Below, one piece after another: positions 60,851 through 61,064 of a stretch of 64,000 nt of DNA. Location: NCBI RefSeq assembly GCF_058153355.1, contig NZ_CM177019.1, one strand, 5' to 3'. Numbering within the stretch: position 1 is the first letter of the stretch; each line of letters begins with the position of its first letter. The translations under genes were made by a program, and so were the position numbers. The notes below the pieces were generated by a model. It was given only the letters and a program-made list of their open reading frames with translations, was not told the DNA's origin and searched no databases.

Positions 60851-61064
60851 TCATTCCTCTCATCCACGTTTAGTAAGCGCGGCGAGTATTCTTGCTGATG
60901 CTACTCATTGCTTCCCCCCCCCTTTACACCTTAATGCCGTTCCCCCCACACAGAACAAATTGTTTATACTTGGCTGAGTAAATAACCTTATTGTTAGCAT
61001 GGGTATGCTGGGAGATGATAACCCCGCAATTTCATTATTCATTGTTCTCCCATAGGATGAGGTT

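Follow-up and report, generated by a model that had tools for sequence, protein, structure and literature searches.

Does the run of nine cytosines between minE and the neighbouring autotransporter gene switch a gene on and off, or is it a hypermutable sequence whose changes in length are simply tolerated? The question was raised by a preliminary description of the 64,000-nucleotide stretch of DNA analysed here (NCBI RefSeq assembly GCF_058153355.1, contig NZ_CM177019.1; referred to below as the window). It had noted a slippage-prone poly-C tract, together with a C6 run, in a region of about 370 bp lying 3' of two convergent genes, had pointed out that tracts of this length are classic phase-variation switches when placed in promoters or coding regions, and had suggested that any effect at this position would be on termination or read-through.

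The cytosine tract and its surroundings

The tract is present exactly as had been claimed. Nine cytosines occupy positions 60914-60922 of the + strand (G9 on the - strand), with GCTT on the 5' side of the run and TTTACACC on the 3' side. This is the longest homopolymer of the window and its only run of C or G of 8 or more nucleotides. The accompanying C6 run was also confirmed (60942-60947, + strand). This second run is polymorphic among strains as well, with C5 in ETEC4068 and an interrupted form (CCCACG) in genomes of the K-12 type. In dinucleotide-preserving shuffles the mean expectation was 0.26 runs of C9 or G9 per window, and at least one such run occurred in 20 of 100 shuffled windows. 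The mere presence of C9 is within chance; the distinguishing trait of the tract is its length polymorphism across genomes.

The gene upstream is minE, the last gene of minCDE (60528..60794, + strand, from the list of ORFs; WP_001185665.1, annotated as minE in every homologous genome fetched). The last base of its stop codon is 60794, and on the - strand the convergent autotransporter ORF terminates at 61162-61164; the spacer therefore extends from 60795 to 61161, a length of 367 bp that agrees with the earlier estimate. The interval between minE and the autotransporter gene, or the ycgI remnant that replaces it in K-12, carries no annotated feature in the curated MG1655 record or in at least eight PGAP annotations. 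An E-value scan of 60500-61400 against Rfam gave nothing near any gathering score, and no mention of a homopolymer near minE was found in the literature.

The convergent gene is represented in the window by the 3' part of an AIDA-repeat autotransporter gene (61162..64000, - strand), whose frame remains open up to 63999. R32_14_1F, in which the autotransporter has 1,558 aa, matches the terminal 300 nt of the window (63701-64000) with 100% identity. Just downstream of the stop codon of this gene lies a hairpin (61128..61149, - strand; fold -16.3 kcal/mol, z = -4.8) that is conserved in E. albertii and is probably the terminator of the gene; its T tail is weak and our terminator scan made no call at this position. 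The gene is intact here, as in the relatives with 1,558 aa. Other strains carry a different, YpjA/EhaD-like allele, and in most E. coli the gene is reduced to the ycgI remnant, which in K-12 is a pseudogene and which in one clone is additionally split by an IS3 element. The minE-adjacent autotransporter locus is a hot spot of gene decay and replacement.

Concerning the origin of the DNA, this is the minCDE region of E. coli. Over 20 kb (window 30000-50000) the sequence shares about 96.5% identity with typical E. coli, and 98.4-98.9% with a handful of genomes deposited under that species name (2020CK-00188, MFDS1022581, WL297, 2013C-4282 and R32_14_1F). From these identities, the window comes from a divergent Escherichia lineage outside the complete-genome collection that we searched.

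Length variation and origin of the pure run

We aligned nine representative genomes in order to compare the states of the tract. The run is C9 in the window, C8 in R32_14_1F and 702/18, and C7 in ETEC4068. The ST131-type strain AR451 has ATTT followed by C8, a B2 strain (O18:H1) has ATTTCCCCCTCCCCC, and K-12, O157 and MEI2B all have ATTTCCACCTCCCCC. We then searched 5,426 complete E. coli genomes with queries of 59-64 nt, in each of which n cytosines stood between 34 nt of left flank of the window type and 19 nt of right flank, and for which 99% identity demands an exact match. As a result, the window-type haplotype was found in 737 of the 5,426 genomes, with runs ranging from C6 to C12. Exact matches identified C6 in 385 genomes, C7 in 192 and C8 in 37, each of these three counts taking in one partial match to a strain that truly has C11 (1517k), and further identified C9 in 5 genomes, C10 in 10 and C11 in 24; C12 was assigned to 6 genomes from 65-nt match spans. 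Every length class was confirmed by reading the tract directly in 22 fetched loci.

The closest comparison was provided by seven genomes (strains 2016C-3878, CREC-544, HB42, AR_0077, CUVET16-465, EC17GD31 and H9) that showed zero differences over 2,670 aligned flank positions, most of them sharing the downstream IS3 insertion. Their runs were C9, C10, C10, C11, C11, C12 and C12. The divergent lineage of the window itself displayed C7, C8, C9 and C9 along with an interrupted form, ATTTCTCCCTCCCCC. Among eight metagenome contigs with the window-type haplotype, six had C6 and two had C7. The tract thus varies in length across isolates, and the earlier statement that it is prone to slippage is borne out by a range of C6-C12 within one haplotype family and of C9-C12 on flanks that are identical over 2.67 kb.

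The alleles with shorter or interrupted runs behaved differently. The K-12 comparison that had been proposed revealed an interrupted allele, ATTTCCACCTCCCCC, which was found as an exact match in 3,551 of 3,603 genomes (98.5%) belonging to several phylogroups. The ST131-type C8 allele was exact in 537 of 604 genomes (89%), with a few variants of +1 or -1. Taking into account that the interrupted allele and C8 are largely invariant while C9-C12 vary freely, instability rises with the length of the pure run. All these lengths are assembly consensus, and many of the complete genomes derive from long-read assembly, a well-known source of wrong counts in long homopolymers; the spread from C9 to C12 could be technical in part.

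Two irregularities were met among the 737 matches. Three of them fell on records that bear a plasmid label, an unexpected place for a locus of the core chromosome. In addition, strain 1517k (NZ_CP054388, locus 646-755, corresponding to about 60923-61029 of the window) carries a 105-bp patch with 42 substitutions or indels. The patch lies exactly between its C11 tract and the conserved block described below, in a haplotype otherwise identical to that of its clone-mates, and has no parallel in the rest of the 737 genomes. Possible origins are an assembly error provoked by the homopolymer and the import of a short piece of divergent DNA.

The version of the tract in K-12, CCACCTCCCCC, is interrupted, and the pyrimidine-rich motif at this site takes the forms ATTTCCACCTCCCCC in K-12, ATTTCCCCCTCCCCC in phylogroup B2 and TCCTCCCCTC in E. 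albertii. As the E. albertii orthologue, which reads CATCCTCCCCTCTTTG, is also interrupted, the comparison identifies the pure run as the derived state. A single T-to-C change in the B2-type motif would give C11, and the shorter runs look like later contractions. We suppose that in some E. coli lineages the interruptions of an older pyrimidine-rich motif disappeared, and that the resulting pure run would then have gained and lost cytosines by replication slippage, leading to the present lengths of C6 to C12.

The C-rich segment and the conserved block downstream

The spacer contains further elements on the + strand. Transcripts leaving minE meet an intrinsic terminator, designated T1 (60819..60851), that was detected in the terminator scan and consists of a 12-bp stem (60819-60846) followed by T5 (fold -16.8 kcal/mol, z = -4.8). 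In K-12, Term-seq places a strong 3' end at the orthologue of T1 (MG1655 1224224/5; Adams et al. 2021, PMC7815308, Supplementary file 1). Past T1 lies an untranslated, C-rich and G-poor segment of about 85 nt (60883..60967, + strand) that includes both C runs and resembles a rut site. Windows of 78 nt within this segment reach C29:G8, which ranks them in the top 0.1-0.2% when the windows of both strands are counted, and the segment is among the ten most extreme C-rich/G-poor regions of the 64 kb. The most extreme stretches, at 20514-20591 (+ strand) and 62114-62191 (- strand), correspond to proline-rich linkers (PNPxPxP repeats) in two autotransporter genes, and were rejected as termination signals since they are coding sequence.

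The RNA of segment 60883-60967 has the features expected of a rut site, being C-rich and G-poor over 70-80 nt or more, untranslated, and largely unstructured by prediction, with 60913-60938 unpaired in the predicted minimum-free-energy fold. Between +60 and +200 from the minE stop codon, C was seen to outnumber G in K-12 (27:8) and E. albertii (21:6) as well, although the sequence of the latter is otherwise hard to align there. It is the surrounding composition, and not the length of the run, that seems to be conserved. In K-12, a Rho termination region has been mapped at MG1655 1224064 on the minE strand (Rho score 24.9, p = 3.6e-67), with 230 upstream and 18 downstream reads without bicyclomycin and 293 and 571, respectively, with bicyclomycin (Adams et al. 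2021, PMC7815308). The call has a coarse resolution of 800-nt windows and was obtained with the interrupted K-12 allele (PMC7815308); the position maps to about 61005 of the window, 83 nt past the tract. As the downstream reads in the presence of bicyclomycin (571) exceed those upstream (293), initiation downstream of minE must contribute to the signal. The relevant Rho-loading site could lie elsewhere, and the K-12 signal cannot be attributed to segment 60883-60967. Few transcripts may reach the tract, T1 being strong. We hold it possible, though short of probable, that segment 60883-60967 is a Rho-loading site. If so, it would load Rho onto transcripts that escape T1, and would thereby prevent minCDE read-through from entering the spacer and, in antisense orientation, the autotransporter gene. 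The gain or loss of a few cytosines would alter such a site only slightly. Judging from its position and composition, an effect of the tract on termination or read-through, as had been suggested, is plausible. The earlier description had made its reading hinge on transcripts from this region, and RNA from the spacer on the minE strand is indeed known in K-12, both from the Rho region at 1224064 and from the Hfq-bound RNA considered next.

About 90-110 nt downstream of the tract, which lies outside the conserved part of the spacer, we found a 60-nt conserved block with a second intrinsic terminator, T2 (61030..61091, + strand; stem 61066-61083, T7 at 61085-61091, from the terminator scan). The block is invariant across all E. 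coli lineages examined and E. albertii, with both flanks diverging. A 21-mer from the block, TTTCATTATTCATTGTTCTCC, was invariant in every E. coli locus fetched. When searched against species-representative genomes, it matched only E. albertii and, by chance, one Pelagibacter contig, the E. coli representative being unmatched. A re-analysis of Hfq RIL-seq data from K-12 lists an RNA designated minE.ycgI.IGR, with 137 chimeric fragments and 5 partners in stationary phase (Bar et al. 2021, PMC8175672, Table S1). It has an SIC score of 0.8 and a U-tract of 7, and is always the second RNA in the chimera (PMC8175672). Its sRNA score in stationary phase is 0.276, just below RybB, above Spot 42 and above the authors' cut-off of 0.1, while in exponential phase 12 fragments and a score of 0.028 were recorded (PMC8175672). 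We infer the match of 61030-61091 to this RNA, and its placement on the minE strand, from the tail of T2, which is the only U7 of the spacer, and from the order of the gene names. The block is very likely the Hfq-bound RNA minE.ycgI.IGR, and as such a candidate sRNA.

The block thus combines, on the strand deduced above, an intrinsic terminator having a long U tail with Hfq association, and also contains a pyrimidine-rich UUCUCCC stretch. It resembles the 3' UTR and intergenic Hfq sRNAs known from RIL-seq in its U7 terminator, its five partners, its constant second position in chimeras and its strong conservation. It differs from them in that it belongs to no Rfam family and in that T2 shows no Term-seq 3' end in three conditions (PMC7815308), and it is a candidate only. 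It has no promoter-like site and no curated annotation; its fold was insignificant against shuffles (z = -0.8 and -1.7), and the block varies too little for covariation analysis. Neither northern blot data nor a mapped 5' end for minE.ycgI.IGR was found, and the string 'minE.ycgI' occurred in no main text searched. The SMRT-Cappable-seq supplements have no entry at the minE spacer, and the Hfq CLASH supplements list only an unrelated hybrid between omrB and the minE coding sequence. Two + strand ORFs in the block (MITPQF..., 32 aa, and MGMLGDD..., 18 aa) were rejected as genes; O157 is devoid of the start codon and both are frameshifted in ST131. Neither had a match in the available part of the ribosome-profiling supplement.

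Possible readers of the tract length

We considered how the length of the tract could be read by the cell. A reading frame is one possibility, and a 45-codon ORF on the - strand (MNNEIAG..., 60905..61042) passes with its 3' end through both G runs. The ORF is preceded by a good ribosome-binding sequence, GGGAGAACAATG, and its end varies with the run lengths, so that the product would have 45 aa in the window, 46 aa where the run is C8, and 69-75 aa according to a few database entries, as if G9 lay in a small gene whose C-terminus were switched among forms of 45, 46 and 75 residues. However, the ORF stops short of the tract in K-12-type genomes and is frameshifted in the ST131-type AR451, and a codon-by-codon comparison by hand with E. 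albertii gave about 5 synonymous and about 17 non-synonymous differences. A search of 5.8 billion proteins yielded no more than 11 small clusters (1-8 members each), which represent several frames and lack any Pfam domain. The ORF is unannotated in MG1655 and by PGAP, and no translated small ORF is listed at its coordinates in the available part of the Stringer 2021 supplement. As its frame, length and sequence are unconserved and it is almost never called as a gene, we rejected it as a gene, and coding phase variation is hardly credible at this locus. The tract might instead constitute a promoter spacer or an upstream element whose length tunes the strength of a promoter for the conserved RNA or for an antisense transcript. 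A TTTACA hexamer directly adjoins the 3' side of the tract, and the Hfq-bound RNA has no mapped 5' end. On the other hand, a sigma-70 scan of 60700-61300 detected no promoter-like site scoring at least 9/12 on either strand, and no usable -10 element was seen by eye 16-18 nt past TTTACA. The tract is also about 90-110 nt away from the conserved block, and the intervening DNA is poorly conserved and replaced in 1517k. We regard a promoter role as extremely unlikely. A G-quadruplex formed by G9 and G6 of the - strand was dismissed as well, because the G runs are too few and nothing indicates that a transcript is made.

Two further explanations concern the length differences themselves and their effect on termination. 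The tract could be real while the differences are mostly homopolymer miscounts in sequencing or assembly. Long-read assemblies are prone to such errors, the metagenome contigs have only C6 and C7, and the error-like 105-bp patch of 1517k begins exactly at the tract. Against this, the lengths are reproducible within studies and clones, with four related strains all C11 and two pairs C11 and C10, and these same assemblies agree on the lengths of the neighbouring C6 and T7 runs. Moreover, the C6 class travels with a linked SNP (GATC), and is therefore inherited, and C8 was agreed upon in 89% of the ST131 genomes, which come from many laboratories. Miscounting as the main source of the variation is unlikely. 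A different proposal is that the tract forms the core of a Rho-loading site and that its length sets how much minCDE read-through is stopped, tuning the Hfq-bound RNA or the antisense RNA of the adhesin gene as a graded contingency locus. Poly(C) is the strongest activator of Rho, whose primary sites bind YC dinucleotides, the tract is situated in a C-rich segment predicted to be unstructured, the K-12 Rho region is found about 85 nt downstream, and the Hfq-bound RNA with its U7 tail lies on the + strand of the same spacer. Nevertheless, about 29 C are already present in 78 nt, so that three more or fewer is a small change, and the interrupted K-12 allele has a nearly equal C:G ratio. No association was observed between length and intactness of the autotransporter gene, as C9 occurs both with the intact gene and with remnants, and C6 with the intact gene. 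Most transcripts are in addition stopped by T1. We consider this role of the tract quite unlikely. That the run length acts as a heritable, reversible dial on transcription from minCDE into the Hfq-bound small RNA and antisense into the adhesin gene is very unlikely. If true, it would represent contingency variation that works via transcription termination and not via a reading frame or a promoter, of which we know no example in E. coli.

With the poly-G/C contingency loci of Haemophilus, Neisseria, Campylobacter and Helicobacter, the minE tract shares an uninterrupted G/C run of at least 8 whose length, as judged from assembly consensus, differs among close relatives, presumably through slipped-strand mispairing. 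In those loci, however, the repeat is in a reading frame or between -35 and -10, and a change of one base flips a gene; here the tract lies neither inside a real coding sequence or conserved frame nor in a core promoter or operator. As no link was seen between length and any gene, the tract fails the defining test of phase variation, and the switch role that such runs had brought to mind is unsupported here, there being no promoter-like site on either strand and the crossing ORF being unconserved in frame and in protein sequence. The segment around the tract resembles the rut sites of lambda tR1 and trp t' in providing about 80 nt of untranslated, C-rich and G-poor RNA predicted to be unstructured, with a bicyclomycin-sensitive region tens of nucleotides downstream in K-12. 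It differs in lying behind an efficient intrinsic terminator, and the K-12 Rho call, with its 800-nt resolution, may be accounted for by other transcripts. To our knowledge, no rut site has been described as a length-variable homopolymer.

Further counterparts are the non-coding homopolymers of E. coli, which are indel hot spots in mutation-accumulation lines, especially in mismatch-repair mutants. The indel rate climbs steeply with run length, and interruptions stabilise the runs. The same pattern was observed at the minE tract, where the interrupted allele is 98.5% invariant, C8 is 89% invariant and C9-C12 vary freely, with the difference that this is a natural population polymorphism at one locus and not laboratory mutation data. 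The tract is a new instance of this known kind of feature, the hypermutable intergenic homopolymer. Since neither a reading frame nor promoter spacing depends on its length, changes in length are tolerated and there is no on/off switch; with no reader of the length found, the tract is probably close to neutral. Taken as a whole, we consider it likely that the tract is a derived, slippage-prone homopolymer, tolerated in an untranslated spacer without serving as a switch, in a C-rich segment that may aid Rho in stopping transcripts that get past T1.

The tract itself is of modest importance. Assemblies and SNP/indel pipelines will give discordant results at this site, and the tract is usable as a fast-evolving marker within some E. 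coli clones. The more promising lead in this spacer is the candidate at 61030-61091, an Hfq-bound RNA that has been flagged computationally and never characterised. For the interpretation of other loci, the tract is a caution that a long G/C run need not be a phase-variation switch. It also illustrates neatly, in a natural setting, the way in which an interrupted and stable pyrimidine motif would turn into an unstable microsatellite after its interruptions are lost.
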